Positions 4,745 through 49,903 of a stretch of DNA of 64,000 nucleotides are shown here, piece after piece. Every line of letters starts with the position of its first letter. Within the stretch, counting starts at the first letter, position 1. The stretch comes from an uncultured Gammaproteobacteria bacterium (GTDB taxonomy: Bacteria; Patescibacteriota; Microgenomatia; PFEM01; JAPLYW01). The stretch lies in contig OZ246397.1 in NCBI GenBank assembly GCA_965230945.1, positions 4,692 to 68,691 of the forward strand, in the 5' to 3' direction. Under the pieces are notes generated by a model. That model was not told the origin of the DNA and ran no database searches. It saw only the letters and a program-made list of their open reading frames with translations. Made by a program: the position numbers and the translations under genes.

Positions 4745-6784
4745 TTAATTTGGTTTGATGTCTTTAATTGTATCTTTTTTAAGCTTAGCTTTCAAGAGAG
4801 AATACTGATTAATTTTAGGGAAAATGGCGTTGGCTGCGCTTTTAGTTTTTTTAATAAGATTAGTATCAGAGAAAGAGGCTACCTTAAGGTCAAAAAAACC
4901 ATGTTGTGTAACTCCGTAAATTTCTCCAGGTCCTCTTAATTTTAAATCAAGTTCAGCTAGTTCGATACCAATACCTGTTTTCTCTAAAGCCTTTATTCTT
5001 TGCAGTGGTTTACCTCTCATAATTTCGCTAAAAAGCAGGCAATAAGATTCTTTATTGCTTCTGCCAACGCGACCTCTCAGTTGATGGAGTTGCGATAAGC
5101 CAAATCTATCAGCGCCTTCAATAACCATAATAGTTGCCTGGGGGATGTCAATGCCGACTTCTACTACTGGTGTAGAAACTAAGATATCTAATTTACCCTC
5201 TTTAAATTTTTTAATAACAGTATCTTTTTCCTTATTTTTCATTCGGCCATGTAAAAGTCCCAATTTGAGATCAGGGAAAATATCTTTACTAAGTTTTTCG
5301 TATTCTACCTTGGCAGCTTTTACTGCCCGTAGACTTTCTGAAATTTCAATTAAAGGGCAGACAATAAAACACTCTTCCTTAGTTTTTTTGACCTTTTTTC
5401 TCATCCAGTTATAGGCGTCGCTTCTTTTTTGGGGAGGAACGACAAAAGTTTTTATCTTTTTTCTTCCAGGAGGCATTTCATCAATAACCGATAAATTTAG
5501 GTCACCATATAAAGTTAAGGCAATAGTTCTCGGGATAGGGGTGGCCGTCATGGTTAAGATATGGGGTGAGGAGCCTTCTTTTAGATTTTTTTTGATTAAT
5601 TTGGCTCTTTGTTCTACACCAAAGCGATGTTGCTCATCAATAATTACTAAGCCTAAGTTTTCAAATTTTGCTTTTTGATATAAAAGAGCATGGGTTCCTA
5701 CAAAGACATTAACTTTTTGTAAGTTTTTTTTACTCTTTTTTTGGTAACCGCCGGTAACTAATTTAATTTTAACTCCAAAAGGATTAAGGAGTTCTTTTAG
5801 AGTTTGATGGTGTTGCTTGGCTAGGATTTCTGTGGGGGCCATCAAGGCAGATTGAGTTTTATTGAGATCGGCAATATAGATAGCTAGAGCTGCCACTGCC
5901 GTTTTACCACTGCCGACATCTCCTTCCAAGAGCCGATTCATGGGTTTGTTCTTTTTGAGGTCGTTAATAATTTCTTGAGAAGATCGTTCTTGAGCCTTAG
6001 TTAGTTTAAAAGGGAGTCTTTTTATAAATTCACTAATCCCCTTTTTACTAACTGAAAATTTAAAAGCTAGTTTTTCTTTTTGCCATGAATCTTTTCGTTG
6101 AAGAGTTTGCAGATGTAAAAGGAAAAGTTCTTCGAAGGCAAAGCGGTTTTTGGCTTCCTGTGCTTCCTTTAATGTTTTGGGAAAGTGGATTTTTTTTAAA
6201 GCCTGGCTAAATTCTAAGAGCTTATTTTCTTTTCTTACTTTTGGAGGTAAAAAATCTTTAAATTGATCACCAAAATTTTTAACTAACCAGGCAATTCTTG
6301 AGCGAAGCCATCTGGAAGTTAGCTTAGAGGTTTCGTGATAGATGGGAATCAATCTTCCTGTATGAACACTTTCTTGTTGGCTCATAAACCTTTCATATTG
6401 AGGAGAGGTCATTACTAATTGACGGCCAAACCAGTCAGCCTTTCCGGAAAAACGATATTCTTCCCCTGCTTTGATGGTTCTTATTAAAAAGGGTTGATTA
6501 AACCAAATAATCTGGATTTTACCGGTGCCATCATCTATCTGAGCTCTTTGGATTTTTCTACCTCCGCGTAAGTATTGGTTTTTGATGGAGATAACTCTTC
6601 CTTTAATGGTGACTATCTCTCCTGCTTGGATTTTGTTAATTGAGGAGATAAGAGAATAATCAGTGTAGCGAAAAGGAAAATGATATAAAAGATCTTCTAC
6701 TCTTTTGATATCTAGCCTTGCCAACCGTTGAGCATAGGCTCCACCGACCATAAAAAGGTTTTTAACAGGCGTTTTAAGTCTCAT
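4745..6784 (-). CDS. recG: ATP-dependent DNA helicase RecG
   Basis: Walker A GDVGSGKT, DEQH box, helicase motifs and N-terminal wedge domain. 679 aa. Confidence 0.9.
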   Translation of the reverse strand: MRLKTPVKNLFMVGGAYAQRLARLDIKRVEDLLYHFPFRYTDYSLISSINKIQAGEIVTIKGRVISIKNQYLRGGRKIQRAQIDDGTGKIQIIWFNQPFLIRTIKAGEEYRFSGKADWFGRQLVMTSPQYERFMSQQESVHTGRLIPIYHETSKLTSRWLRSRIAWLVKNFGDQFKDFLPPKVRKENKLLEFSQALKKIHFPKTLKEAQEAKNRFAFEELFLLHLQTLQRKDSWQKEKLAFKFSVSKKGISEFIKRLPFKLTKAQERSSQEIINDLKKNKPMNRLLEGDVGSGKTAVAALAIYIADLNKTQSALMAPTEILAKQHHQTLKELLNPFGVKIKLVTGGYQKKSKKNLQKVNVFVGTHALLYQKAKFENLGLVIIDEQHRFGVEQRAKLIKKNLKEGSSPHILTMTATPIPRTIALTLYGDLNLSVIDEMPPGRKKIKTFVVPPQKRSDAYNWMRKKVKKTKEECFIVCPLIEISESLRAVKAAKVEYEKLSKDIFPDLKLGLLHGRMKNKEKDTVIKKFKEGKLDILVSTPVVEVGIDIPQATIMVIEGADRFGLSQLHQLRGRVGRSNKESYCLLFSEIMRGKPLQRIKALEKTGIGIELAELDLKLRGPGEIYGVTQHGFFDLKVASFSDTNLIKKTKSAANAIFPKINQYSLLKAKLKKDTIKDIKPN

Positions 6785-38126: not shown

Positions 38127-38174
38127 CTTCAGTAATAGTATAATATATTTTTATTAATTATTAATAGTCCTGAC

Positions 38175-38870
38175 TAATCCTATAACTTGACTTCCCTACT
38201 CTGTTTGAATATAATTCGGGCTATCTGTTGTAGTTCTTTAATAATTGAATATAAATTTTTAAGTAATTTGAGAGAAAGGAAGAGGGATAGAATTGTGATA
38301 TTTCTTGTAGTTTTTTTGTTTTTAAATTAAATAGTAGGAGATAAGAAAGGATAGGTCAGGAAAAATGAGTAAAGAGAGAGAAAATTATTTTCGTGCATGG
38401 TTTGAGTAGGTAATGTTTATCTTGAGTTTAAAGATAATAGTAAAACGGGCCGTGCGAAAACACTACAACTACTGAGATTATTCGGAGGAAAATCAATATT
38501 AATTAGTGTTGATAGAAAAGAGAATGGACAGTGGCAAATAAATGTTTAAAGATTTAAGAAAGGGTAGGTGAAGGAATGCCGTTTGAGCAATTTCTTTCTA
38601 GTTGCGTTTTCGTGATCGTATTATTGATTATTGCTGGAGGTTGTTTTTTAGTCGGTTATCTTTTTCACTGTAGTCTTACAGATAACTGTAGTCTTACAGA
38701 TAAAAGAATGATAAACAAGAAAGGATAACGTGAGAGAAAGAAGCAAGAAAGATATAGAAAAGAGGACTGATGTCACACTTGTTGTTTAAGAAACAAAAAA
38801 CTTCCAATAGCTGGAAGACAATAAATTTCTTAACCTGACGACATCAGTCTCTTTTTTTGCCTATTTATCA
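38175..38870 (+). repeat. repeat element copy 2: promoter TTGACT-N17-TATAAT at 38187-38215, about 480-bp insertion, 3' hairpins and tandem U-tract terminators (38843-38885)
   Basis: 5' and 3' modules match copy 1. The 3' module is closed by ACTGATGTC...GACATCAGT and holds TTGTTTAAGAAACAA and CTTCCAATAGCTGGAAG hairpins. Confidence 0.7.
38576..38728 (+). CDS. candidate 50-aa hydrophobic peptide inside repeat copy 2 (MPFEQFLSSCVFVIVLLIIAGGCFLVGYLFHCSLTDNCSLTDKRMINKKG)
   Basis: Codons read by hand. SD-like AGGTGAAGGA before the ATG. Perfect 18-bp tandem duplication (38668-38703) encodes CSLTDN/CSLTDK. Confidence 0.3.
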   Translation: MPFEQFLSSCVFVIVLLIIAGGCFLVGYLFHCSLTDNCSLTDKRMINKKG

Positions 38871-38888
38871 GGCTTTTTTGAATCTAAG

Positions 38889-38961
38889 GGTGACTGACCG
38901 GATTCGAACCGGCAACATCCTACTCCACAGGTAGGCGCTCTACCATTGAGCTACAGCCACC
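38889..38961 (-). tRNA. tRNA-His (anticodon GTG) with genomically encoded G-1
   Basis: Acceptor GTGGCTG/CAGTCAC. Extra 5' G opposite discriminator C. Anticodon loop CTGTGGA. Confidence 0.85.
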
Positions 38962-38977
38962 ATATGTGCCCATTCTA

Positions 38978-41941
38978 TCAAAAAAAAGCTAAATAAACAA
39001 TTAAAAGCAGGATTAGGAAATAACCTAAATATTGAAGAATTTGAGGTAAAAAGATAAATATTATCTTACCTTCTGTATTTTGGTTATTTTCCCATCCATT
39101 TGCCCATCCTTTATATAAAAATGGTTTTCCTAAAGATTTAATTTTAAAATTATCTTTTATACTAAAAGCTCTCCAGTTTTTTTCAAAAGATTGATTATTA
39201 GTAATTATTTTTTCTTGAGAGAGTTTTTCTTCCTTAATAAATTGATATTCTAAAGGTGCTATTTTAATAGATTTTAATTTATTAATTGTTTTTAATGGAC
39301 CAATACCATAATTGCTTATATTGATATCATATCCTTGTCCTTCTTTGCCTATTTTAGGTATAAAAAACACATTTTGTCCATTATTTAAATCAGAATATAA
39401 GTCACAGTGTTTGGTATGATAATTAGTTAGACAGACTCTTAAAGGAAGTCCTGAGATATTTTCTGCTTCCATTATTAAGGTATAGCTTCTTTGATGAGAT
39501 AACTCAGGGAAACTAAAGGAGTCTCTTGTTTCTGCTTTTTGGGTACTATATTCTTTAGATATCTCTATATTATCAACAATCTCTGGAGCGAGTTTTTTTA
39601 AAGCTCTATAAGTGGTTGCCTTTATATCTTTTATCAAAGTTTCTTTTTCTTGATCTTGAGCATCTAAAAGAAAGCGTAATTCGTAATTTTCTATTTCTCT
39701 GTTTTTAGGGAATTGAAAAAGGTAGCTATTTTCTTCTTTTTTCCCTAAAAGACAATCATCACTCCCCCATTTTGCTAGACAAAAAGATAGTTTTTCTTCT
39801 TCATATAGAAATTCTATTTTTAGAAGAAAATTCGTAAAAGGTTTTGTTTTTAAGATGGCTTTTAGGGGTATTTTAGAACAGGCAATAGCGTTTTTTCCAA
39901 AGAGTATAAAACTATCTTTTTGAACTTCTTTAAGAGCGAAAATTTGTTTTTCTTGAGGCTGACTACAAAGACTTAACTGTGGATCAAGTCTTTCTATATC
40001 TAAGAAATATTCTCTTTTTATATTTAAATTAAAATCTTCTTTATTTATTTTTCCTATTTCTGAAGCTTTTTCTAATGCTTGTTTCTTAAGTTCTTCAGGT
40101 GGATTTTCAAAATCAATTAAGATAGGATAGTTTTGCTGATTTTCTTTAAAATTTACTTGATAAATTTTTAAATTCCCAAATTCTTTAGTTAATTTAATAT
40201 TTTCTGACAAAGATAAAAGTTTTTCTGTTTGATTAAAAAATAAGACTTTTTCGTCTTCTTTAGGAGCAATGATGTTTTTATCTAATAAAAGCCAATGAAT
40301 GTTATATTTTTGTAAAAGATTTTCTAAAAGTTCATTGTTCTGGCTATAAATAGCATATGATATTTCTTGATAAGCTTTTTCATTTTTTGGATTCCATCGA
40401 TCAAAATCTCTTACCAATAAAGATTGCTCAAGGCCAAACCAGCTAAAACCGGCTCCCTGAAAGCCCCATTTATAGTATTCCCAACCCCAAAAGGTGTGAA
40501 GTGGTAATTGGACGATTCTCCCCTTATCTTCTTGTTTATTAAGCCAGTCAGTCATTTCGAAATAAGATTGAGGAATTTTAATCCTTAAGCGAGGATTAAT
40601 AAGTTGCCCTTTAAGGGCAGGTAAAGTAAATAAAATAAGAATGATAGTAGTGATAATTGTTATTAAATAAATAATATACTTTTTCTTTAGAAAGAATTTC
40701 TTAAATCGATTAAAGATAAAACTTAATCCAAAAGCGAAAAAAACAGCATAGCTAAACATCAATATGATAGAAAACTTAGTGAAGGGAAATCTTAAAGCTT
40801 CTTTAAAAAGAGGTATTTTTTCTCTTAAAAATAAAAAAATTTGTTTAAAAGGAGTTGTAGCACTGATTAAAAAGACAAAAGCAATAAAGAATATTGGTAA
40901 TAAGGGGATAAGTTTTTTGTTTCTTTTGATTAAAGAACCAACAATTCCTAAAGTAATAATTAAAAAGCTTAAATAACCAATGGATAATATAAAAGGATTT
41001 CTTAGATGTTCAATCCAGCTTTTTAAAAGATAATCAAAGTTTTGAGTGTTGAAATTATATTGCGTCCAGCTAAATAAATGATTTTTCAAAAGAACAGTAT
41101 TTTTAATATTTCCATATTCGTAGTTATGCAAAAATGCTTCTTCTGAAAATAATCTATTTATTTTAGCTTGGATAATTTCCCCACTCTGGTGGGTAATAAA
41201 GTAAAGATTAGGTAAAAGCCAAAAAGAGTTAATTACTAATAGGATGATTATTAGAAGAAATATTCTTTTTAGATATAATAGGCGCTTTTTTTGTAAAAAA
41301 AGATAAGTTAGAAGGTAAATTAAAAAACAGCCGAAAAAGGTATACCATAAGGTAGCTGCATAAGCTTGAGGAGTACTTAAAAAAGAAATTAAAGCAAAAT
41401 AAATTAAAAGTCTTTTTTTGTTTTCTTTTAAAAATAAAGTAGAGATAAGAAAAAACCATCCTAAGGCTGCATACTGAGTGGCAAACATCTCAAAAGGAAC
41501 ATAAAAGTGCTGTATGGTTCCTAAATTAAGTAAATAAAATAATCCTCCTAAGAAAGCAAGATTCTTCTTAAATAAATAAGGTAATTTATTGAATACAATT
41601 TTTTCTAAGAAGAAATAAATTCCTAAAGGGCCTAAGACAAGGCAAATAAGAAAGTAAAAGTAACGCAGGAAATTTAAAGGAAATATAAAAGAGAACGGCC
41701 ATAAGAACAGAATTCTAGGTAAATCAGCCATATGAGAATGTCCGGCTACGGCTCCTAAACCCTGTTCATAACGCCAAACACCATTAAAAATTCTTTGTAT
41801 ATTTAAGGAAAAATTAAATTCTGGGTGAAGTGTATCCCAACCACTTAGCCAGGTATTCGGGTTGAAATTCAAAAAAAATAGTAATAAAGAAAAAGAAATT
41901 AATATTAAAGGAAAAAGATTTTTTTTAAAAAAGGAAAGCAT
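38978..41941 (-). CDS. large polytopic membrane protein, GT-C-fold glycosyltransferase-like (YfhO/ArnT-like) with about 500-aa extracytoplasmic domain and C-terminal TM
   Basis: 987 aa. More than 12 N-terminal TM helices with an Asp/Glu loop near TM1 (WDTLHPEF). Family assignment is by architecture only. Confidence 0.45.
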   Translation of the reverse strand: MLSFFKKNLFPLILISFSLLLFFLNFNPNTWLSGWDTLHPEFNFSLNIQRIFNGVWRYEQGLGAVAGHSHMADLPRILFLWPFSFIFPLNFLRYFYFLICLVLGPLGIYFFLEKIVFNKLPYLFKKNLAFLGGLFYLLNLGTIQHFYVPFEMFATQYAALGWFFLISTLFLKENKKRLLIYFALISFLSTPQAYAATLWYTFFGCFLIYLLTYLFLQKKRLLYLKRIFLLIIILLVINSFWLLPNLYFITHQSGEIIQAKINRLFSEEAFLHNYEYGNIKNTVLLKNHLFSWTQYNFNTQNFDYLLKSWIEHLRNPFILSIGYLSFLIITLGIVGSLIKRNKKLIPLLPIFFIAFVFLISATTPFKQIFLFLREKIPLFKEALRFPFTKFSIILMFSYAVFFAFGLSFIFNRFKKFFLKKKYIIYLITIITTIILILFTLPALKGQLINPRLRIKIPQSYFEMTDWLNKQEDKGRIVQLPLHTFWGWEYYKWGFQGAGFSWFGLEQSLLVRDFDRWNPKNEKAYQEISYAIYSQNNELLENLLQKYNIHWLLLDKNIIAPKEDEKVLFFNQTEKLLSLSENIKLTKEFGNLKIYQVNFKENQQNYPILIDFENPPEELKKQALEKASEIGKINKEDFNLNIKREYFLDIERLDPQLSLCSQPQEKQIFALKEVQKDSFILFGKNAIACSKIPLKAILKTKPFTNFLLKIEFLYEEEKLSFCLAKWGSDDCLLGKKEENSYLFQFPKNREIENYELRFLLDAQDQEKETLIKDIKATTYRALKKLAPEIVDNIEISKEYSTQKAETRDSFSFPELSHQRSYTLIMEAENISGLPLRVCLTNYHTKHCDLYSDLNNGQNVFFIPKIGKEGQGYDINISNYGIGPLKTINKLKSIKIAPLEYQFIKEEKLSQEKIITNNQSFEKNWRAFSIKDNFKIKSLGKPFLYKGWANGWENNQNTEGKIIFIFLPQILQYLGYFLILLLIVYLAFF

Positions 41942-42043
41942 TTGATTATATTTTATCAGAAAAAAAGAGAAGGAGGTGAAGATTGCTAGATAAAAGAATA
42001 TCTAATAAAGGTCTTCACCTCCTGTTTAGGCATATTTTTGCCT

Positions 42044-42964
42044 TTAGGAGTTTCTTATCCATTGTCCAGAATCGACTAAGCGGAAAGAACCATCATACCA
42101 TCTTAAAACAGCAACCCATGTAATTGTTTCGCATTGTTCAGCGCAACCACATTGGCCACGAAATTCAGGATTTGGTTCATCGCTTCCTAATTGATTAAGG
42201 TAGTGATTACGTAAAATAGCTAAAGTTTCTAGGGTATACTCTCCATATTCTGGATCAGTATAGTCTTCATTGTCAGCCATATCTGACATGTCCCAAACTT
42301 CACCTACTCCCCAAAAACCATGAAGTAAATAAGCGTTTAGAAATTCACCAGGGATTTCCCAAACATTTATTAAAGCTACTAAGATAGCTCCACCATCAGG
42401 GTCTTTAACACTACCAATTCCAGGTAACCAAGTTTCTTCCCCAGTAAAAACAAGCCATTTCCAGGTTGGAATTTGAACATTGGCTCGACGCGAAACATCT
42501 CTGAAAGCATCATTATAACCAAAGTTATATCCTGCTCTTGGTTTTCCCCAAACACTTTCTACATCAGGAAAGATGCGATAAGATGTTAGGTCTTGAGGAA
42601 TTTCTGGAAAATTGACTTCATCACTTATATCAATTAAATCAGGATCTGGACTAAAACCAGGTTCAATAACAGGAACTTCAAAAATAATCTTCTCTTGTTC
42701 ATTTGTTGAATTTTGATCTTCTATTTCTTTAGCCTTTTCAGTAGCTAAAGCAGAATTAGCAAAACCTTCATCGACACTAGTTTTTATTTTTCCTAAACCT
42801 TCTTCGGCTGTTTTTTCAAGATTATTGATAGATTCAATAATCTTTTCAATGTCTTCAGCCTCAATTGGTCTACAAGAATTAAAAACAACGAGGGAAAACA
42901 AAATTATTAAAAGAACAGCGAATGATTTTAGAAAAATATGTGTCTTTATTTTCATCTCCATCAC
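42044..42964 (-). CDS. secreted protein of unknown function with C-terminal Cys cluster (CGCAEQC)
   Basis: N-terminal signal/TM. 306 aa. No family recognised. Confidence 0.45.
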   Translation of the reverse strand: MMEMKIKTHIFLKSFAVLLIILFSLVVFNSCRPIEAEDIEKIIESINNLEKTAEEGLGKIKTSVDEGFANSALATEKAKEIEDQNSTNEQEKIIFEVPVIEPGFSPDPDLIDISDEVNFPEIPQDLTSYRIFPDVESVWGKPRAGYNFGYNDAFRDVSRRANVQIPTWKWLVFTGEETWLPGIGSVKDPDGGAILVALINVWEIPGEFLNAYLLHGFWGVGEVWDMSDMADNEDYTDPEYGEYTLETLAILRNHYLNQLGSDEPNPEFRGQCGCAEQCETITWVAVLRWYDGSFRLVDSGQWIRNS

Positions 42965-42990
42965 TTCCTTATTTAATCTTGATCAATTTT

Positions 42991-43104
42991 TTTATATTTG
43001 TTTGGTAAACCGTATGTAATCATCCAAAGAAGTAAAGATAACATCGGAAGAATCAAAAAAAAGATTACGGTTCCAATCCACCTCCCATCAAACTTTCGTT
43101 TCAT
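42991..43104 (-). CDS. candidate 37-aa protein with perfect Shine-Dalgarno (AGGAGG-N5-ATG)
   Basis: Hand translation gives MKRKFDGRVDWNRNLFFDSSDVIFTSLDDYIRFTKQI. Lies in the 200-bp gap between the sortase substrate and the secreted protein. Confidence 0.35.
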
Positions 43105-43165
43105 ATCAACCTCCTAAAGTTAAATATGCCTATTTTAAAGAGCAAATCTTAAATCCAAACGCTTT

Positions 43166-43876
43166 TTATTTAGATCTAAGATGTTCCTTTCGAAGTTTAA
43201 AGACTCCGAAAATTAAAGCAGAAATTAATAAAATAATAGTCCAAATAAGATTATTGCCTGTTTTAGGAATAGTGGTAATACCTAAAATCTTTTTACTAAT
43301 ACAAAGTTGAGAAGTATCTCCAGCGCTTTTATCGTCTTTTTTAGCTTCCCCACTGTTGGTAACACAGTAAATTCCGTCACCTTCAGGAAGATCATTTTCT
43401 GAAACAACTTTGGCTTTTATTTCGTAAGTTTTTGATTCTCCGGGATTAAGATGATCAATTTTCCAAGTAGCTGTTTTATCATCCCAACCATCAGGAGTAG
43501 AAGTAAAATATAAATAATCAGGTAAAAAGTCTTTAACTTCAATATCATTTAGATCTTCTTCACCTGTATTTTTAATGGTTAATTTAAAGATAACTTCTTG
43601 ATACGGGGTGTAAGTAGAATCATCAGCATAAAGATTATCGACATATTTATCTTCTTCAGGATGTCTGACGACTTTATCTAAAGAAATTTCTCCTTCATAG
43701 CAGATTTCTCCGCCGCCGTATTGTTCAACACAGCGACCAGCGACGACCTTAGGAAAGATTAAAAGCCCTAAGATGCTCCCGATGATTAAACCTTTAATTA
43801 ATAGATTGATTTTTTTCATACAAAAAACCTGCTTTAGCAAGGGCAGGCTATGATAGATGATAAAACTATATACCAT
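43166..43876 (-). CDS. cell-surface protein with DUF11-like beta-sandwich domain and C-terminal sortase sorting signal (IPKTG + TM + RKEHLRSK)
   Basis: Signal/TM at the N-terminus. TIPKTGNN followed by a hydrophobic helix and basic tail is the classic LPXTG-type tripartite signal. Confidence 0.7.
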   Translation of the reverse strand: MVYSFIIYHSLPLLKQVFCMKKINLLIKGLIIGSILGLLIFPKVVAGRCVEQYGGGEICYEGEISLDKVVRHPEEDKYVDNLYADDSTYTPYQEVIFKLTIKNTGEEDLNDIEVKDFLPDYLYFTSTPDGWDDKTATWKIDHLNPGESKTYEIKAKVVSENDLPEGDGIYCVTNSGEAKKDDKSAGDTSQLCISKKILGITTIPKTGNNLIWTIILLISALIFGVFKLRKEHLRSK

Positions 43877-43889
43877 ATAATTCTCCTTG

Positions 43890-44594
43890 TCAAGTTATAG
43901 GGTAGGTAATAACTAAAAGTCTTTTCCAGGCTGTTCCCGGAGGCCAGCAAGTTTGTAGAATAAGCTCCTTTTCTTTTAAATTAAGATTTTCTATTTCAGA
44001 TACATCATTAGGATTGATGATTTTTTGATTATCAACCTGATAAGAGTAGACCTTGCCCTTGTAGACCAAGACGACACGATCTCCTTTATCTAATTTTTTT
44101 AAAGAATAAAAAACGGGATTAAAGAAGTTAAGATTAAAAATAGAGTTGGTTGAATGACCAAAGACATAGATAGCTCCATCTTCATCAGGTAGACTAGAAC
44201 CTACAGCGTGAGCAGCTTTATCTTTTAAGACTTCATTGTATTCTTTCTCATTGGTGGCGTTGACGTTAGTTAAAACTTGGGTTCTAACCCCAATTTTGGG
44301 GATAATAAGCTCGAATTCGTAATCATTAGGAGATAGAACATATCTAAATTTACTTTCTATCTCGACACTGTTTTTATCTTTGTTTAATAGGTAATTCAAT
44401 TCTCCTACCATAAAAGGTAGAAAAACAAAAAATAGTCCTATTAATGGAAGAACAACAAAACTTAATTTTAGTTTATTAAAAGATTTTTTTTCAGGAGAAT
44501 AAAGATCAAAAGAACTTGCAGAATCCCCTGATTTATAAATAATTATTCCTTCATTCATAGTATAAAGTATGCCCTGTACAGTAGGACTTTTCAA
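43890..44594 (-). CDS. sortase-family transpeptidase
   Basis: N-terminal TM. Catalytic His (YVFGHS), TLxTC-type Cys motif (LILQTCWPP) and a downstream Arg. Confidence 0.7.
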   Translation of the reverse strand: MKSPTVQGILYTMNEGIIIYKSGDSASSFDLYSPEKKSFNKLKLSFVVLPLIGLFFVFLPFMVGELNYLLNKDKNSVEIESKFRYVLSPNDYEFELIIPKIGVRTQVLTNVNATNEKEYNEVLKDKAAHAVGSSLPDEDGAIYVFGHSTNSIFNLNFFNPVFYSLKKLDKGDRVVLVYKGKVYSYQVDNQKIINPNDVSEIENLNLKEKELILQTCWPPGTAWKRLLVITYPIT

Positions 44595-44616
44595 GTTTGG
44601 AGCAGGAGAAGCTTAG

Positions 44617-44690
44617 TACTCCCAGCAGGACTCGAACCTGCAACCTACTCCTTAGAAGGGAGTCGCTCTATCCGATTGAGCTATGGGAGC
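44617..44690 (-). tRNA. tRNA-Arg (anticodon TCT)
   Basis: Acceptor GCTCCCA. Anticodon loop CTTCTAA. T-arm GGTTCGAGTCC. Confidence 0.85.
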
Positions 44691-44696
44691 TTATTG

Positions 44697-44769
44697 AGCG
44701 GGGGACGAGATTCGAACTCGCGACCTTCTCCTTGGAAGGGAGACGCTCTACCAACTGGGCTACCCCCGC
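44697..44769 (-). tRNA. tRNA-Gly (anticodon TCC)
   Basis: Acceptor GCGGGGG. Anticodon loop CTTCCAA. T-loop TTCGAAT. Confidence 0.85.
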
Positions 44770-44794
44770 AAGTTAACTTAAAAGCCAAGTTTTG

Positions 44795-44869
44795 TCGGGG
44801 AGCCGGGACTCGAACCCGGGACCTCACGCTCCCAAAGCGCGCACTCTAAGCCAACTGAGCTACTCCCCG
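44795..44869 (-). tRNA. tRNA-Pro (anticodon TGG)
   Basis: C1-G72 acceptor typical of bacterial tRNA-Pro. Anticodon loop TTTGGGA. Confidence 0.8.
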
Positions 44870-44874
44870 TTTTG

Positions 44875-44960
44875 TGCCGAAGGCGGGATTCGAACCCGCA
44901 TGGTGGAATACCACCAAGAGATTTTAAGTCTCTCGCGTCTTCCAGTTCCGCCACCTCGGC
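44875..44960 (-). tRNA. tRNA-Leu (anticodon TAA)
   Basis: Long variable arm. Anticodon loop CTTAAAA. T-arm GGTTCGAATCC. Confidence 0.85.
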
Positions 44961-45085
44961 AGATGTAACTATTATATCAAAAAAAGCAATAAAAGAGGAG
45001 TGGGGAAAGAAAAATATGGAATTAAAAAAAACCACCAGATGGTCTAAAAATAAACTTAAGGGGAGGGAGAAGAAAATATAACCTT

Positions 45086-45364
45086 TCACTGCCTTTTAAA
45101 TAATTTTCTAAGGTCAGTTCTAGCTTGCTCAAGAATTTTTTTTCTTTCCATCCCGAGGTTTTTACCAGCTCGGTTGATATAAAAGTTAAGCATACTCATA
45201 GCAGATTGATAAGGAGTCCCCTTACGCCTTAAAGAATCCTCAGCCGAACGTTTAAGTGAAGCTGCAATCTTCTTCGAATTTTTCCAAGTAAATACCCCTT
45301 CTTCCAAATCAAGAGCAATGCTTTTTTTCGTTACCTCAGCCGACCAATATTTCTTTCCAGCCAT
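45086..45364 (-). CDS. DUF3175 family protein
   Basis: KKYWSAEVTKKSIALDLEEGVF...SLKRSAEDSLRRKGTPYQSAMSMLNFYINRAGKNL matches the DUF3175 pattern. Confidence 0.6.
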   Translation of the reverse strand: MAGKKYWSAEVTKKSIALDLEEGVFTWKNSKKIAASLKRSAEDSLRRKGTPYQSAMSMLNFYINRAGKNLGMERKKILEQARTDLRKLFKRQ

Positions 45365-45417
45365 ATATTTCTATTATACCTATTTTGACAACCAAGATGC
45401 GAGATTAGTCTTGTTTT

Positions 45418-45488
45418 GCTTGGGAGCCAGGATTCGAACCTGGATTAATGGGTCCAAGGCCCATTGTCCTACCATTAGACGACCCCCA
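45418..45488 (-). tRNA. tRNA-Gln (anticodon TTG)
   Basis: U1-A72 acceptor as in bacterial tRNA-Gln. 3-bp D-stem GTC/GAC. Anticodon loop CCTTGGA. Confidence 0.8.
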
Positions 45489-45557
45489 ATTATATTTTCT
45501 TAACCTATCTAAGAATCTTTTTATTTAGAAAGGAGCGTTGTTATTTTAGAATATGGG

Positions 45558-45628
45558 AGCGGGTAACGGGAATTGAACCCGTCTCTCATCCTTGGCAAGG
45601 ATGTGTAATACCGCTATACGATACCCGC
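45558..45628 (-). tRNA. tRNA-Gly (anticodon GCC)
   Basis: Acceptor GCGGGTA. Anticodon loop TTGCCAA. Discriminator U. Confidence 0.85.
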
Positions 45629-45634
45629 ATTGGG

Positions 45635-45707
45635 TGCCGAGGGGCGGAGTCGAACCGTCATCTCAGCTTTTTCAGAGCCGCGCCGTGACCACCTTGGCTA
45701 CCTCGGC
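45635..45707 (-). tRNA. tRNA-Phe (anticodon GAA)
   Basis: Acceptor GCCGAGG. Anticodon loop CTGAAAA. Confidence 0.8.
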
Positions 45708-45733
45708 AGATTTTTCTTATTCTACCATATCTG

Positions 45734-45807
45734 TGGACGAGAGAGGACTCGAACCTCTGACCTTCTCTGTGTAAGAGAGACGCTCTAACCAGCTGAGCTA
45801 CTCGTCC
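45734..45807 (-). tRNA. tRNA-Val (anticodon TAC)
   Basis: Acceptor GGACGAG. Anticodon loop CTTACAC. Confidence 0.85.
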
Positions 45808-45808
45808 T

Positions 45809-45897
45809 TGGTGCCGGGAACAGGACTCGAACCTGCACACCTATTTAAAGGTACTGCCTCCTCAAGGCAGCCTGTCTACCAATTCCAGCATCCCGGC
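45809..45897 (-). tRNA. tRNA-Leu (anticodon GAG), CCA encoded
   Basis: Long variable arm. Anticodon loop TTGAGGA. 3' ACCA present. Confidence 0.85.
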
Positions 45898-45908
45898 AGG
45901 TTTTAATG

Positions 45909-45992
45909 TGCCCTGAGAGAGAGTCGAACTCTCACGTCCTTAAGGACACTAGCTTCTGAAGCTAGCCTGTCTACCAATTCCAGCATCAGGGC
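45909..45992 (-). tRNA. tRNA-Leu (anticodon CAG)
   Basis: Long variable arm. Anticodon loop TTCAGAA. Confidence 0.85.
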
Positions 45993-47642: not shown

Positions 47643-48056
47643 TTATTTTTTAATTAACCAGAGAGTGAGGGTGGTAACGATACTGATGACCAAAGAAGCT
47701 AAAACAAAAGCCCAAAAGGTAGCCATATAAAAAGAAGGCATGATAAAGCCCTTATAGCTAAAGCCTTCAAAAAGAAAACCAGCAATCTTAAATTGAGGGA
47801 CAATAATGGTTGCCAACCAAAGAGTGATAACGTTTATCAACCAGCGAAAAGTACCCAAAGTAAGGAGGTTAATAGGCAGAAACAGAACTTTAATTAGGGG
47901 TTTAATTAAGGTTCCCAATAAGGCTAAAACTAAAGCTGCTAAGGCAAGGGTTTGCCAGCCACCAGTAAAACTAACTCCTGTAAATAGAAAAGCTACCAAC
48001 CATAAAGCAAAAAGATTAATTAAAAAGAAACGGAGATACTTTTTAATAAATGACAT
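47643..48056 (-). CDS. YvlD/phage-holin-4-like family membrane protein
   Basis: 137 aa, 4 TM helices, YvlD-like pattern. Confidence 0.5.
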   Translation of the reverse strand: MSFIKKYLRFFLINLFALWLVAFLFTGVSFTGGWQTLALAALVLALLGTLIKPLIKVLFLPINLLTLGTFRWLINVITLWLATIIVPQFKIAGFLFEGFSYKGFIMPSFYMATFWAFVLASLVISIVTTLTLWLIKK

Positions 48057-48088: not shown

Positions 48089-49903
48089 TCAAAATTTCTT
48101 TTTTAAAAGGATAAATAAGGTAGCTAGAGTAAGTGCTCCTCCCAACGAGGGGATGATAATTTGCCAAATAAAAGATCCTATTTCTATTTCCTTCTCAAAA
48201 TCCTGATCATTAACAGAAATTTTAATTAAACCGTCTCCCTTGGCGAAGGCATTTTCAGGGGTGATGATAAGAGAAATTTCCCTATAAGAAAAAGGCGGTA
48301 AGACAGGTATTTCTTGTTGATGGGGTGATGATAGAACTACTCCTTGGGCATTAATTTTAACCTTCAGGTTATAGAAAGCAGTTTGACCTTCGTTTTTAAT
48401 AATAAGCTTGCCTTTTTTAGTTTCCTTCCAAAAAATTTGGGCAGGTAGGCTAAAATCAACCTGTAACTTAGGAGGTTTTTCTGGCTCGTATTCACCAAAG
48501 GCTACTTGAACGGTTTTTTCCATAGAATCTGGTGATTTATAAGAACCGGCAGGATACGGTTCTTCACTATTTTGGCCATGGATAGCAAAAACAAAGTGAT
48601 TTAAGTCGCTTTTATAGAAATAATCAATACCTTCTGTAGTTTTTTCCCAAGTAGGGTCAATTGGTACCCATAATTGTTTTTTTTCATCATAGTATTCCGG
48701 CCAGGAATGTAAGACATCGGTAACTAAGTTCAAAGGACGGAGTCTTATATCATCGGTATAAGCAAAGCCGTTAATTTCTCTGGCCGGAATGCCTGAAGCT
48801 CGGGCAAGGGTAATAAATAAATCAGTAAATTCCATACAGATAGCCTGACTGGGGTTTTCTAGAGCCTTGACTGCTCCTAATCTCTCAACTCCCTCAGCAA
48901 CCCGATCAAAATTATATTCTAAAGTGTTAATAACGAAATTATAAATAACTTTAGGTGTTTTTAAATTCTTAGATAATTTGATAATTTGCGGATGATTAAC
49001 CTCCCAATATAATGATGCGGAAAGGTTGTCATCCAAAATTTCTTTATTTGGCTGGGGAAAATCTTTTTGGGGTTGGGCTAAAATTTTAACTCTACCACTG
49101 GCGATAACTTTTAACTGCTGGCGAGGCTTTAATTTATATTTAGCTAGCCAGTTACCATCTTGATCAACCCTGATATTTAAAGGTCTTGGATCAAGATTTT
49201 TAAAAGAAAGTTGTTGAAAGGCAGTGTCAGGAGGTAAGGCGATTTCTGTTTCAGCCATACTATAGTGAGAGTTATCTAGGTAATAAAACAAAGTAAAATT
49301 AAAGATTTGAAAGGGGCCGAAAGTAGCGTTTATACCAGATTCAAAAAGCCTGTTTTGGGTAAAACGATAGGTTTTAAAGCTCTCCGATTCAATAACTTCA
49401 ATGGGTTCAGGTCTTATAAAGGCCGGATTACCAAAGCTTTGGGGAACATTTAAAGAGAGAGAATAGCTGTCAATTTCACTTAAATTAGAAATACGAGGAA
49501 TGTTAATTTCCCAAATTTCTCCTTTTCTTAGAGCGGCATTAAGATTTTCATAGGTAAGATTAAAGGTTAAGGTTTTATCAACACCAACAACTTGTTGGTT
49601 AAATTTAATGATAATAGTTGTTGACTTAGAATCCTTATTAATTTCCATCTGACAGTCTCCATCACTATCAGTTGCCTTAATGTTTTGTATTTGAGTTGAA
49701 GGTAGGGTTAAAGAGTATTGCGTGGCGTAAACCCGAGAAAGTTTATTGGTTAAAGAAATCTGATGATTGACACTAACAATACCGCTTTTATTTACTTGAT
49801 AGCGGATGTTGTACTCAGTTTTAAATTCTTCGGAGGCAAAGAGAGGTTCAGTAAAGAGAAAGAAAAGAAAGATAAAGCTTAGGGCAAGAAAAATACGCTT
49901 CAT
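48089..49903 (-). CDS. transglutaminase-like cysteine protease superfamily protein, secreted with C-terminal TM anchor
   Basis: Signal peptide. Cys-His-Asp core (AICMEFTDLF ... VLHSWPEYYD). C-terminal helix GGALTLATLFILL. Confidence 0.6.
   Translation of the reverse strand: MKRIFLALSFIFLFFLFTEPLFASEEFKTEYNIRYQVNKSGIVSVNHQISLTNKLSRVYATQYSLTLPSTQIQNIKATDSDGDCQMEINKDSKSTTIIIKFNQQVVGVDKTLTFNLTYENLNAALRKGEIWEINIPRISNLSEIDSYSLSLNVPQSFGNPAFIRPEPIEVIESESFKTYRFTQNRLFESGINATFGPFQIFNFTLFYYLDNSHYSMAETEIALPPDTAFQQLSFKNLDPRPLNIRVDQDGNWLAKYKLKPRQQLKVIASGRVKILAQPQKDFPQPNKEILDDNLSASLYWEVNHPQIIKLSKNLKTPKVIYNFVINTLEYNFDRVAEGVERLGAVKALENPSQAICMEFTDLFITLARASGIPAREINGFAYTDDIRLRPLNLVTDVLHSWPEYYDEKKQLWVPIDPTWEKTTEGIDYFYKSDLNHFVFAIHGQNSEEPYPAGSYKSPDSMEKTVQVAFGEYEPEKPPKLQVDFSLPAQIFWKETKKGKLIIKNEGQTAFYNLKVKINAQGVVLSSPHQQEIPVLPPFSYREISLIITPENAFAKGDGLIKISVNDQDFEKEIEIGSFIWQIIIPSLGGALTLATLFILLKKKF

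Follow-up and report, generated by a model that had tools for sequence, protein, structure and literature searches.

The 64,000-nucleotide stretch of DNA analysed here (the window) carries a cell-envelope cassette that is conserved among CPR bacteria of the Microgenomates type, and we consider its full explanation, including the mechanism proposed below, moderately probable. CPR bacteria (Patescibacteria) account for a large share of the diversity of bacteria and have a lifestyle of attachment to other cells; to our knowledge, very little is known of their envelope besides type IV pili and Pam pili, the latter described recently. The cassette comprises five minus-strand ORFs and a tRNA, in the order sortase, CLIPPER substrate, 43-aa ORF, gene 3, 987-aa GT-C glycosyltransferase and tRNA-His (Table 1). 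All ORFs listed in an earlier note on this DNA were confirmed in position and strand, and the outer limits of the finding (38978-44594) are those of the longest possible ORFs. The four protein identities given in that note, a sortase, a DUF11 sortase substrate, an exported third protein and a GT-C-like glycosyltransferase, all hold, and its description of a cell-surface display or decoration system is a fair label, since the GT-C fold was found, the sortase triad is invariant and the genes are co-conserved. The evidence establishes what the genes encode, that the catalytic and isopeptide residues are present, that the 987-aa protein has a GT-C fold and that the genes stay linked across relatives. 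Each part of the cassette is individually of a known kind, and we found no description of their combination in the literature.

Table 1. Features of the cassette and its surroundings, in window positions
Feature	Coordinates	Strand	Remarks
Sortase	43890..44558	-	222 aa from ATG 44558; ORF reaches TTG 44594
Promoter-like site TTGACA-17-TATAGT	43865..43893	-	11/12 matches; overlaps sortase stop, upstream of substrate gene
Sortase substrate	43166..43819	-	217-aa precursor; Pfam DUF11/CLIPPER match
IPKTG sorting motif codons	43256..43270	-	aa 184-188; read in the sequence
43-aa ORF	42973..43104	-	one hydrophobic helix; strong AGGAGG Shine-Dalgarno
Gene 3	42044..42964	-	303-306 aa; exported, membrane-tethered
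Long stem-loop with U-run	41971..42023	-	between gene 3 and GT-C
AftD-like GT-C glycosyltransferase	38978..41941	-	987 aa; from fold search
tRNA-His(GTG)	38888..38960	-	17 nt downstream of GT-C

The first gene encodes a sortase, as its HS...LQTC motifs had suggested. The protein matches the Pfam Sortase family (PF04203 / peptidase C60) with 70.8 bits (1.1e-19; cut-off 26.6) and TIGR01076 with a score of 53.3 against 39.35, and its likely start is the ATG, where the homologues also begin. A short N-terminal cytoplasmic segment and a single TM helix precede the extracytoplasmic catalytic domain, which carries the catalytic residues His135, Cys204 (LQTC) and Arg213; the motifs FGHSTNS and LILQTCWPPG are read in the sequence. 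These three residues are invariant in an alignment of 15 relatives and align with the triad of the nearest solved structures, which are class D/C sortases. None of the NCBIfam models for sortase classes A-F reaches its cut-off, and all stay far below it (class C 47.3 vs 160, class D 44.8 vs 165, SrtD 48.4 vs 140, class E 30.3 vs 160, class F 20.4 vs 166). The membrane anchor, the His-Cys-Arg triad, the (L)xTC motif and the adjacency of enzyme and substrate genes are shared with the transpeptidases of Gram-positive housekeeping LPXTG anchoring (C60), whereas an invariant QTCWPPGT and the extra N-terminal cytoplasmic segment set the Microgenomates enzymes apart. Sortase is nearly ubiquitous in Microgenomates (PMC6744442). 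A 10-sequence sortase alignment served as the query in our metagenome scan for such enzymes. We know of no substrate or partner previously identified for the Microgenomates sortase.

The adjacent gene encodes a protein that matches DUF11/CLIPPER (PF01345) with 54.9 bits (1.3e-14; cut-off 24.6), a domain present in 27/27 of its database homologues, and it likely starts, as the homologues do, at the MKK methionine (ATG 43819). Like the Sortase match of the first gene, this match lies well outside what chance would give. An N-terminal hydrophobic segment is present, and the layout comprises a signal peptide, a QYGGG-containing loop (Cys30-x9-Cys40), a single CnaA-like Ig domain of the CLIPPER type and a C-terminal sorting signal. 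The domain carries Lys49/Asp97/Asn155 and Cys152/Cys173, conserved among 93 family members at 100% (K49), 99% (D97), 100% (N155) and 99% (both cysteines). The D97-N155 spacing of 58 is the same as that of D748-N806 in the crystallised CLIPPER domain (PMC12617251). An intramolecular Lys49-Asn155 isopeptide bond, together with disulfides, probably locks the domain; neither the protein nor its family profile matched 9IFR in searches of PDB sequences, so the assignment of the triad rests on conservation and spacing. Compared with the CLIPPER domains of fibrillar adhesins (PF01345; PMC12617251; PDB 9IFR), which have the same Lys/Asp/Asn triad, Asp-Asn spacing and disulfide, the substrate has one domain in 217 aa rather than the tandem repeats of a long stalk, lacks an adhesin head domain, and carries in addition the Cys-QYGGG-Cys loop at its N-terminus and some 15 inserted residues past the Lys strand.

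The C-terminus confirms the earlier reading of a DUF11-like surface protein ending in IPKTG, a TM segment and a basic tail: ...GITTIPKTG is followed by a 19-aa hydrophobic stretch, NNLIWTIILLISALIFGVF, and the tail KLRKEHLRSK. The TIGR01167 sorting-signal HMM scores 11.8, under its cut-off of 15.9. As in LPXTG anchoring, the substrate combines a signal peptide with a motif/hydrophobic/basic-tail signal; it differs in that I, M, T, V, Q and L all occur at position 1 of the motif, and T or A at position 4. The signal is kept in 86/93 relatives, with P and G at 100% and T or A at 83% and 17%, and ranges over LPKTG, LPPTG, MPKTG, TPSTG and LPEAG. IPKTG had been singled out as non-canonical; with nine of the 86 signals, next to 15 LPKTG, 10 LPPTG and eight MPKTG, it is an ordinary variant of the xPx[T/A]G pattern of this family. 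No second C-terminus of this type was found among the ORFs of the window.

Three parts make up the product of gene 3: a signal-anchor or lipoprotein-like signal at the N-terminus (..VVFNSC), about 70 aa of helical spacer, and a conserved domain, rich in β-structure and some 200 aa long (aa 100-306), for which no recognisable fold relative was found. The description of a Cys-cluster secreted protein stands as to export; the cluster (GQCGCAEQC) can be read in the sequence but is missing in most family members. Relatives keep a gene in this position, between CLIPPER and GT-C, with its sequence replaced, which suggests a variable, outward-facing role. BLAST single linkage joins 54 position-3 genes, and hhalign between the three C-domain subgroups gives probabilities <3%. 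Because low-complexity linkers are the probable cause of this joining, we claim no homology for these genes and do not propose a single hyper-divergent family. Many gene-3 proteins, and the C-termini of some CLIPPER proteins, carry mucin-like linkers rich in Thr and Pro.

The earlier note had read the 987-aa protein as GT-C-like with a large extracytoplasmic domain, and both features were recovered. After a polytopic membrane domain (aa 1-447) come an extracytoplasmic α/β domain and β-sandwich modules, two or three in number (aa 448-964); one TM helix (aa 965-986) forms the C-terminus. The question of the fold was decided by the fold search, which returned mycobacterial AftD as the top match of the GT-C fold, at 16% identity, along with CBM-like modules. 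Conserved acidic residues are present as well: D36 and E41 of the GWDTLHPE motif lie in the first outer loop, directly past TM1, and are invariant in 56 sequences. Residues K39/D41 are essential in the first loop of AftD (preprint 10.1101/2019.12.22.885152), to whose D41 the pair D36/E41 would correspond by position alone. At the sequence level, phmmer against the PDB gave no match, a profile search matched AftD weakly (E 0.046, at the C-terminal NGW motif), and Pfam PF11847 (GT-C_AftD) scores 19.6 bits, under 26. Eight GT-C representatives reach sub-threshold Pfam scores only (AftD 23.8-24.4 bits; PTPS_related 25.7 vs 26.4), and YfhO gives no Pfam match. Compared with AftD (PDB 6W98/6WBX), an arabinofuranosyltransferase of about 1400 aa, the protein is shorter and ends in one TM helix instead of a four-helix, ACP-binding bundle, and arabinan production is not known from its host. 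Paralogues occur within the GT-C family, which is large.

The linkage of these genes is conserved whether searched from GT-C or from the sortase. The order sortase-CLIPPER-gene 3-GT-C is kept at 81, 58, 46 and 39% GT-C identity, with differing flanking genes. A CLIPPER gene lies within 8 kb of GT-C in 51/80 species-level loci, and in 28/38 loci from different species when at least 5 kb are available on both sides; our own estimate of the chance expectation, for a gene present once in a genome of 0.6-1 Mb, is about 2-3%. Seen from the sortase, both the CLIPPER gene and GT-C lie downstream in 16 of the 23 loci for which 6 kb or more of downstream sequence is available. The trio is retained in WWE3 in an altered order, GT-C-CLIPPER-sortase, and in L016/L027 the sortase comes after GT-C. 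The co-occurrence that the earlier note proposed to check holds across Microgenomates and WWE3. In the nearest relatives the entire region is syntenic, flanking tRNAs included, so part of the co-occurrence is simple vertical inheritance. No partner at all accompanies GT-C in 17/80 loci, and the more distant sortases are frequently without CLIPPER and GT-C partners.

A single, clean operon is not supported for the cassette, given the promoter-like site ahead of the substrate gene and a conserved, strong hairpin with a U-run that separates gene 3 from GT-C. The former is a consensus match only, and such sites are as many in the region as shuffling predicts. The hairpin (ΔG -24.8 kcal/mol, z -6.6) has counterparts of -27.6 to -30.4 kcal/mol in four relatives (L008, L004, L006 and L092), with different stem sequences, and looks like an intrinsic terminator or an RNA-stabilising hairpin. 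A conserved TAAAAT box lies downstream of it, and the ATG of GT-C has no Shine-Dalgarno sequence.

In the mechanism that we infer, the sortase would cleave IPKT|G of the adjacent secreted substrate and transfer it to an amine on the wall precursor in the manner of LPXTG sortases. The anchored product would be a short surface protein of great stability, attached to the wall, and not a fibre, beside which the gene 3 product would stand as a membrane-tethered β-rich exoprotein, with a variable outward-facing role. The cassette may have a part in host contact. Judging from its fold class, GT-C would most likely take a polyprenyl-phosphate-linked sugar at the outer face of the membrane and, aided by its CBM-like modules, add it either to a glycan of the cell surface or to the proteins encoded beside it. 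In multi-component GT-C systems of the CsbB/GtcA/YfhO type (PMC8035078), the GT-C likewise acts outside the membrane on envelope polymers, and a family-2 glycosyltransferase directly adjoins GT-C in some lineages, though not in the window. This neighbour gives generic soluble GT2 (TuaG/EpsE-like) matches and is not clearly of the GtrB/CsbB type; we therefore rejected it as a polyprenyl-phosphate sugar synthase of that kind.

The assembly of a pilus, with the sortase polymerising CLIPPER subunits into a covalent fibre, appears very improbable. The nearest solved sortases do include pilus-type class C enzymes, and IPxTG-type signals are known in the pilins of Gram-positives. CnaA-like isopeptide domains are also typical of pilins (PMC12617251). 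However, there is one substrate gene with one domain, no YPKN/WxxxVxVYPK-type motif, and a class C score of 47 against a cut-off of 160; the only invariant Lys, K49, is spaced with the invariant D97 and N155 like an intramolecular isopeptide triad. The pilus-like character suggested in the earlier note is unsupported on the same grounds: the single substrate gene, the missing pilin-type lysine motif and the low class C score. Pam, the pilus described for CPR bacteria, is assembled by donor-strand exchange, involves no sortase and is a different system. Distinctly unlikely, in our view, is an absence of functional coupling, in which a general housekeeping sortase would have CLIPPER as one of several substrates, GT-C would be an independent wall-polysaccharide enzyme, and inherited synteny would make them neighbours. 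The tRNA genes conserved in nearer relatives, the seemingly separate transcription signals, the solitary GT-C loci and the partnerless distant sortases all fit such a reading. Against it, the association is kept where the flanks are wholly different and under the rearrangements in WWE3 and L016/L027, it emerges from both GT-C-side and sortase-side searches, and no other sorting-signal protein is encoded in the window.

Unlikely, too, is a third reading, that GT-C is a dedicated protein glycosyltransferase modifying CLIPPER or gene 3 outside the membrane before sortase anchoring, as a GT-C counterpart of the Actinomyces oris GspA-LcpA-SrtA system, in which glycosylation comes before anchoring (PMC6381275). 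There too a sortase-anchored protein is encoded beside an extracytoplasmic glycan-transferring enzyme; the enzyme is an LCP phosphotransferase rather than a GT-C, GspA is unrelated to CLIPPER, and glycosylation is hypothetical in the present case. This precedent, the tight CLIPPER-GT-C linkage that outlasts rearrangement, and the mucin-like linkers speak for a protein acceptor, whereas the AftD match and CBM-like modules point to a glycan. In addition, the CLIPPER protein of the window is nearly without a linker (..KKILGITTIPKTG), its gene-3 spacer is helical and not Thr/Pro-rich, and no conserved sequon was found. An undescribed CPR pathway, in which an AftD-like GT-C would glycosylate the sortase substrate or the tethered protein outside the membrane before anchoring, and the fixed-position, sequence-replaced gene 3 would be a strain-specific surface determinant (e.g. 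for host recognition or phage evasion), is an unlikely possibility. If true, it would define a compact module of the 'glyco-anchor plus variable head' kind, characteristic of Microgenomates and WWE3, and a GT-C that is truly a protein glycosyltransferase coupled to sortase anchoring would represent a new route to wall-anchored glycoproteins.

The analysis names a likely principal substrate of the Microgenomates sortase, a tiny isopeptide-type Ig domain, shows that it travels with a large AftD-like GT-C family lacking a model of its own, and exposes a hypervariable slot between the two genes. Substrate, GT-C partner and slot offer a testable entry to CPR surface biogenesis and possibly host specificity.

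The remaining elements listed in the earlier note seem peripheral. The tRNA-His, counted there as part of the module, follows GT-C in L004, L006 and L092 and not in L008 or L011, and is only a syntenic neighbour; an Rfam search of the window returned tRNAs only. The small ORF does have a perfect AGGAGG, 7 nt ahead of its ATG, and encodes 43 rather than 37 aa. It gave no family match in Pfam/NCBIfam HMM searches, and identical copies occur in same-strain contigs only. In the 81%-identity relative L008 it is disrupted (ATG to ATA, in-frame GGG to TGA), and it is absent from the corresponding gaps of L004 (94 nt) and L006 (59 nt). It is thus probably not a conserved component of the cassette, contrary to its earlier inclusion. 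A role as a sortase partner like SafA (PMC9282373), a small TM protein that is conserved, carries an FPW motif and is encoded in linkage with an actinobacterial sortase gene, was rejected, as the ORF lacks this motif and is not kept in relatives. It fills most of the 201-nt gap at 42965-43165, which is longer than the window median of 37 nt and had been called unusually long, yet 12 of the 73 gaps in the window exceed it.

The sortase gene, the gene for a CLIPPER-domain protein, the gene for a 306-aa protein (gene 3) and the gene for a 987-aa GT-C membrane protein are best interpreted as a conserved envelope cassette. All features between 38888 and 44594 lie on the minus strand, and the coordinates and motifs that the earlier note gave for the cassette were correct.

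Features of the cassette, its surroundings and the equivalent hairpin regions of four related loci
Feature	Position	Strand	Remarks
Ten-tRNA gene block	44616-45992		Directly upstream of the sortase ORF
Sortase ORF	43890-44594	-	Likeliest start ATG 44558 (222 aa), from homologues
DUF11 ORF (substrate)	43166-43876	-	Likeliest start ATG 43819 (217 aa, MKKINLL...), from homologues
Small ORF, 43 aa	42973-43104	-	AGGAGG 5' of the ORF
Gene 3 ORF, 306 aa	42044-42964	-	
Hairpin region between gene 3 and GT-C	41942-42030 (hairpin 41971-42023)	-	Long stem-loop, then U-run
GT-C ORF, 987 aa	38978-41941	-	
tRNA-His	38888-38960	-	
Equivalent hairpin region, L004	6900-6975		
Equivalent hairpin region, L006	6895-6975		
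Equivalent hairpin region, L008	6912-6985		
Equivalent hairpin region, L092	2605-2690		

Judging from its sequence, the product of the first ORF is a real sortase, without class assignment. It scores 70.8 bits with the Pfam Sortase model (cut-off 26.6) and also exceeds the cut-off of the generic NCBIfam sortase model, while remaining far under every cut-off of the class-specific NCBIfam models (A-F). Among solved structures, class D and class C sortases come closest, and the FGH, LQTC and WKR motifs align with their catalytic His, Cys and Arg. A single TM helix lies N-terminal to the catalytic domain. The Pfam score and the three catalytic residues, His135, Cys204 and Arg213, which are invariant across 15 Microgenomates and WWE3 relatives, bear out the identity proposed in the earlier note. 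Sortases had already been described as almost universal in Microgenomates (PMC6744442).

The putative substrate matches DUF11 (now CLIPPER) with 54.9 bits (cut-off 24.6) and has a C-terminus made up of IPKTG, a stretch of 19 hydrophobic residues and the tail KLRKEHLRSK, a combination unique among the ORFs of the 64-kb window. In database entries it is named merely 'DUF11 domain-containing protein'. CLIPPER is a CnaA-like Ig domain, and its crystal structure contains a Lys715-Asn806 isopeptide bond with Asp748 as the catalyst (PMC12617251). In 93 relatives of the substrate, Lys49, Asp97 and Asn155 are conserved at 100%, 99% and 100%, with the same Asp-Asn spacing of 58 as in the crystal structure, and Cys152 and Cys173 are conserved at 99%. 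We thus infer an isopeptide-locked, disulfide-bonded single domain. Outside the Pfam domain, at the N-terminal end of the mature protein, a Cys-x(2)-QYGGG-x(2)-Cys loop (43700-43732, residues 30-40) could serve for recognition or modification; the Cys30-QYGGG-Cys40 loop occurs in about 75% of the 93 relatives, and its conservation reaches 99% for Tyr, 90% for the first Gly and about 75% for Cys.

The sorting motif of the family is xPx[T/A]G, counted as LPKTG (15), LPPTG (10), IPKTG (9) and MPKTG (8), then TPPTG, TPSTG, LPEAG and others, with canonical LPKTG/LPETG in the WWE3 members. IPKTG, singled out earlier as non-canonical, is thus one ordinary variant within this continuum. The suggestion of a pilus-like system fares poorly, since there is a single substrate gene without a second pilin gene, no pilin-type motif and, across the substrate family, no conserved lysine besides Lys49; a covalent pilus is accordingly unlikely.

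Gene 3 matched no Pfam or NCBIfam family; an indexed search yielded 15 homologues, and a set of 1.84 billion proteins contained 59 representatives. A signal-anchor or lipoprotein-like signal and a helical spacer precede a β-rich domain of 200 aa, which is well conserved and contains numerous invariant polar and aromatic residues. LysM or SH3 modules take the place of the anchor in a few homologues; in the family members P0127, P0135 and P0133, it is LysM, SH3 or a lipoprotein signal that replaces the TM anchor, a hint that the protein acts at the cell wall. The earlier note described gene 3 as a Cys-cluster secreted protein; its GQCGCAEQC cluster is missing from most of its own family. The slot that separates the CLIPPER gene from GT-C nearly always holds, in related genomes, a 210-350-aa protein of similar build: after an anchor and, in many cases, a Thr/Pro/Glu-rich linker comes a β domain often ending in ...GC-xxx-V-x-V-V. 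No sequence homology is recognisable between the types of slot protein (hhalign <3%), and a relative with an 87%-identical sortase already carries a different gene 3. The slot is conserved in position and replaced in sequence.

The AlphaFold model of the 987-aa protein is confident (pLDDT 90.7, pTM 0.84), and at the structure level AftD, a mycobacterial GT-C arabinofuranosyltransferase, is its top match, followed by OST/PMT-like proteins. The GT-C-like architecture noted earlier is thereby confirmed at the fold level, as predicted by the model. In an alignment of 56 homologues, the motif GWD36TLHPE41 directly after TM1 is invariant, as are further residues including E151, E381, R384, K389, D514, R515 and W516. 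The essential residues of AftD around the active site are K39, D41, E251, K361 and D474 (10.1101/2019.12.22.885152), and D36/E41 take the corresponding first-loop position as judged by topology, not by superposition. However, AftD and this protein are not orthologues. The two share 16% identity, and the score with Pfam GT-C_AftD (19.6 bits) is under the cut-off of 26. AftD is also about 400 aa longer and carries a C-terminal ACP-binding four-helix bundle where the 987-aa protein has one TM helix. No NCBIfam model was matched and eight relatives are all sub-threshold in Pfam, placing this family, by profile comparison, outside every curated model. It has more than 1,200 homologues; a source name is attached to six of the best 120, mostly Patescibacteria, Microgenomates and Shapirobacteria.

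Co-occurrence across related genomes, proposed earlier as a check, was found from both ends of the cassette. The order sortase-CLIPPER-gene 3-GT-C recurs at 81, 58, 46 and 39% GT-C identity with differing flanking genes, the last in a Shapirobacteria MAG. Using the GT-C alignment against one genome per GTDB species, we annotated 80 loci with profiles built in this analysis. A CLIPPER gene lies at most 8 kb from GT-C in 51 of them (28 of the 38 with full flanks); in genomes of 0.6-1 Mb, by our estimate, a single-copy gene would fall this close by chance in about 2-3% of cases. Of the same 80 loci, 28 contain a sortase, 25 a recognisable gene 3 and 14 a family-2 glycosyltransferase. Starting from the sortase, CLIPPER is next door in 35/57 metagenomic loci with at least 1 kb downstream, and both CLIPPER and GT-C are present in 16/23 with at least 6 kb. 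Flanking tRNAs are conserved too in the nearest relatives, so part of the linkage signal there is plain synteny; rearranged and re-flanked loci argue for selection on linkage. The order is GT-C-CLIPPER-sortase in WWE3 and CLIPPER-gene 3-GT2-GT-C in Levybacteria-type loci, where GT-C has about 1,200 aa. In five loci (L010 6227-6997, L022, L033, L039 and L059), a 250-aa family-2 glycosyltransferase directly precedes this longer GT-C paralogue. Levybacteria-type loci have the CLIPPER signal TPSTGP or PPTGP and no adjacent sortase, and in locus L066 (1056-11006) two GT-C genes flank sortase and CLIPPER.

In the proposed mechanism, the sortase would attach the small and highly stable CLIPPER-domain protein to the wall, next to the variable tethered exoprotein encoded by gene 3, and the AftD-like GT-C with its CBM-like modules would transfer a sugar carried by polyprenyl phosphate onto a surface glycan or onto neighbouring proteins. 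AftD as the top structural match and the CBM-like modules favour a glycan as the acceptor. GT-C may instead glycosylate CLIPPER or the gene 3 protein: it is tightly linked to the sortase substrate, its next-best matches are OST/PMT-like, many gene 3 proteins have mucin-like linkers, and A. oris GspA/LcpA provides a precedent (PMC6381275). A role of the cassette in host attachment would be plausible for an episymbiont. Full-text searches on sortases in the Candidate Phyla Radiation and in Patescibacteria returned no paper with a title or abstract on the cassette; two CPR papers note the presence of a sortase and no more, and another describes a pilus system of a different kind.

A TTGACA-17-TATAGT sequence, as a consensus match only, overlaps the sortase stop codon. 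The hairpin between gene 3 and GT-C has a folding energy of -24.8 kcal/mol (z -6.6), and its equivalents in four relatives reach -27.6 to -30.4 kcal/mol, with stems that differ in sequence yet pair. A conserved TAAAAT box lies 3' of the hairpin, and the GT-C ATG has no Shine-Dalgarno sequence. Owing to these features and the U-run, GT-C is perhaps transcribed separately, as a near-leaderless transcript after a terminator, so that the cassette probably comprises more than one transcription unit.

The gap at 42965-43165 (201 nt) is above the window median of 37 nt, but 12 of the 73 window gaps exceed it, so that it is not unusually long. The small ORF within it, listed earlier as a 37-aa cassette member with a perfect SD, has 43 aa and is identical in same-strain contigs only. 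In L008, the 81%-identity relative (5857-6053), its ATG is ATA and a GGG Gly codon is an in-frame TGA, and the gaps of L004 and L006 are too short for it. The TGA reflects either ORF decay or an odd coincidence; certain other CPR lineages read TGA as Gly, and the L008 frame downstream of it still encodes a similar hydrophobic peptide. On this sequence comparison, we leave the small ORF out of the cassette's components. Nor does it have the FPW motif that marks SafA, a small sortase partner of Actinobacteria (PMC9282373). Since the first ~60 nt of the gap are conserved and L004 has their core, TTTAAAATAGGCATATTTAACTTTAGGAGG, immediately in front of gene 3, this segment is a leader/RBS element.

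In several relatives (L004, L006, L008, L092), the cassette is framed by the same tRNA genes, with Leu-Pro-Gly-Arg immediately before the sortase and His immediately after GT-C; with all on one strand, the cassette may be read with the tRNA operons. Between tRNA-His and a methyltransferase gene, 761 nt (38127-38887) without an ORF of at least 90 aa and without an Rfam match contain a terminator-like hairpin (38801-38817) as well as 18 nt that are perfectly duplicated in tandem (38667-38702). As annotated on the identical contig L001, further envelope-related genes nearby encode a transglutaminase-core protein of 604 aa (48089-49903, minus strand), a Phage_holin_4_2 membrane protein (47643-48056, minus strand), SecG and an SBP_bac_5 protein. 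Finally, many CPR-like GT-C contigs (L015, L019, L021-L023 and others) have public records under the titles 'uncultured Gammaproteobacteria', 'Nevskiaceae', 'Clostridia' or 'Nanoarchaeota' and are probably mislabelled or mis-binned MAGs.
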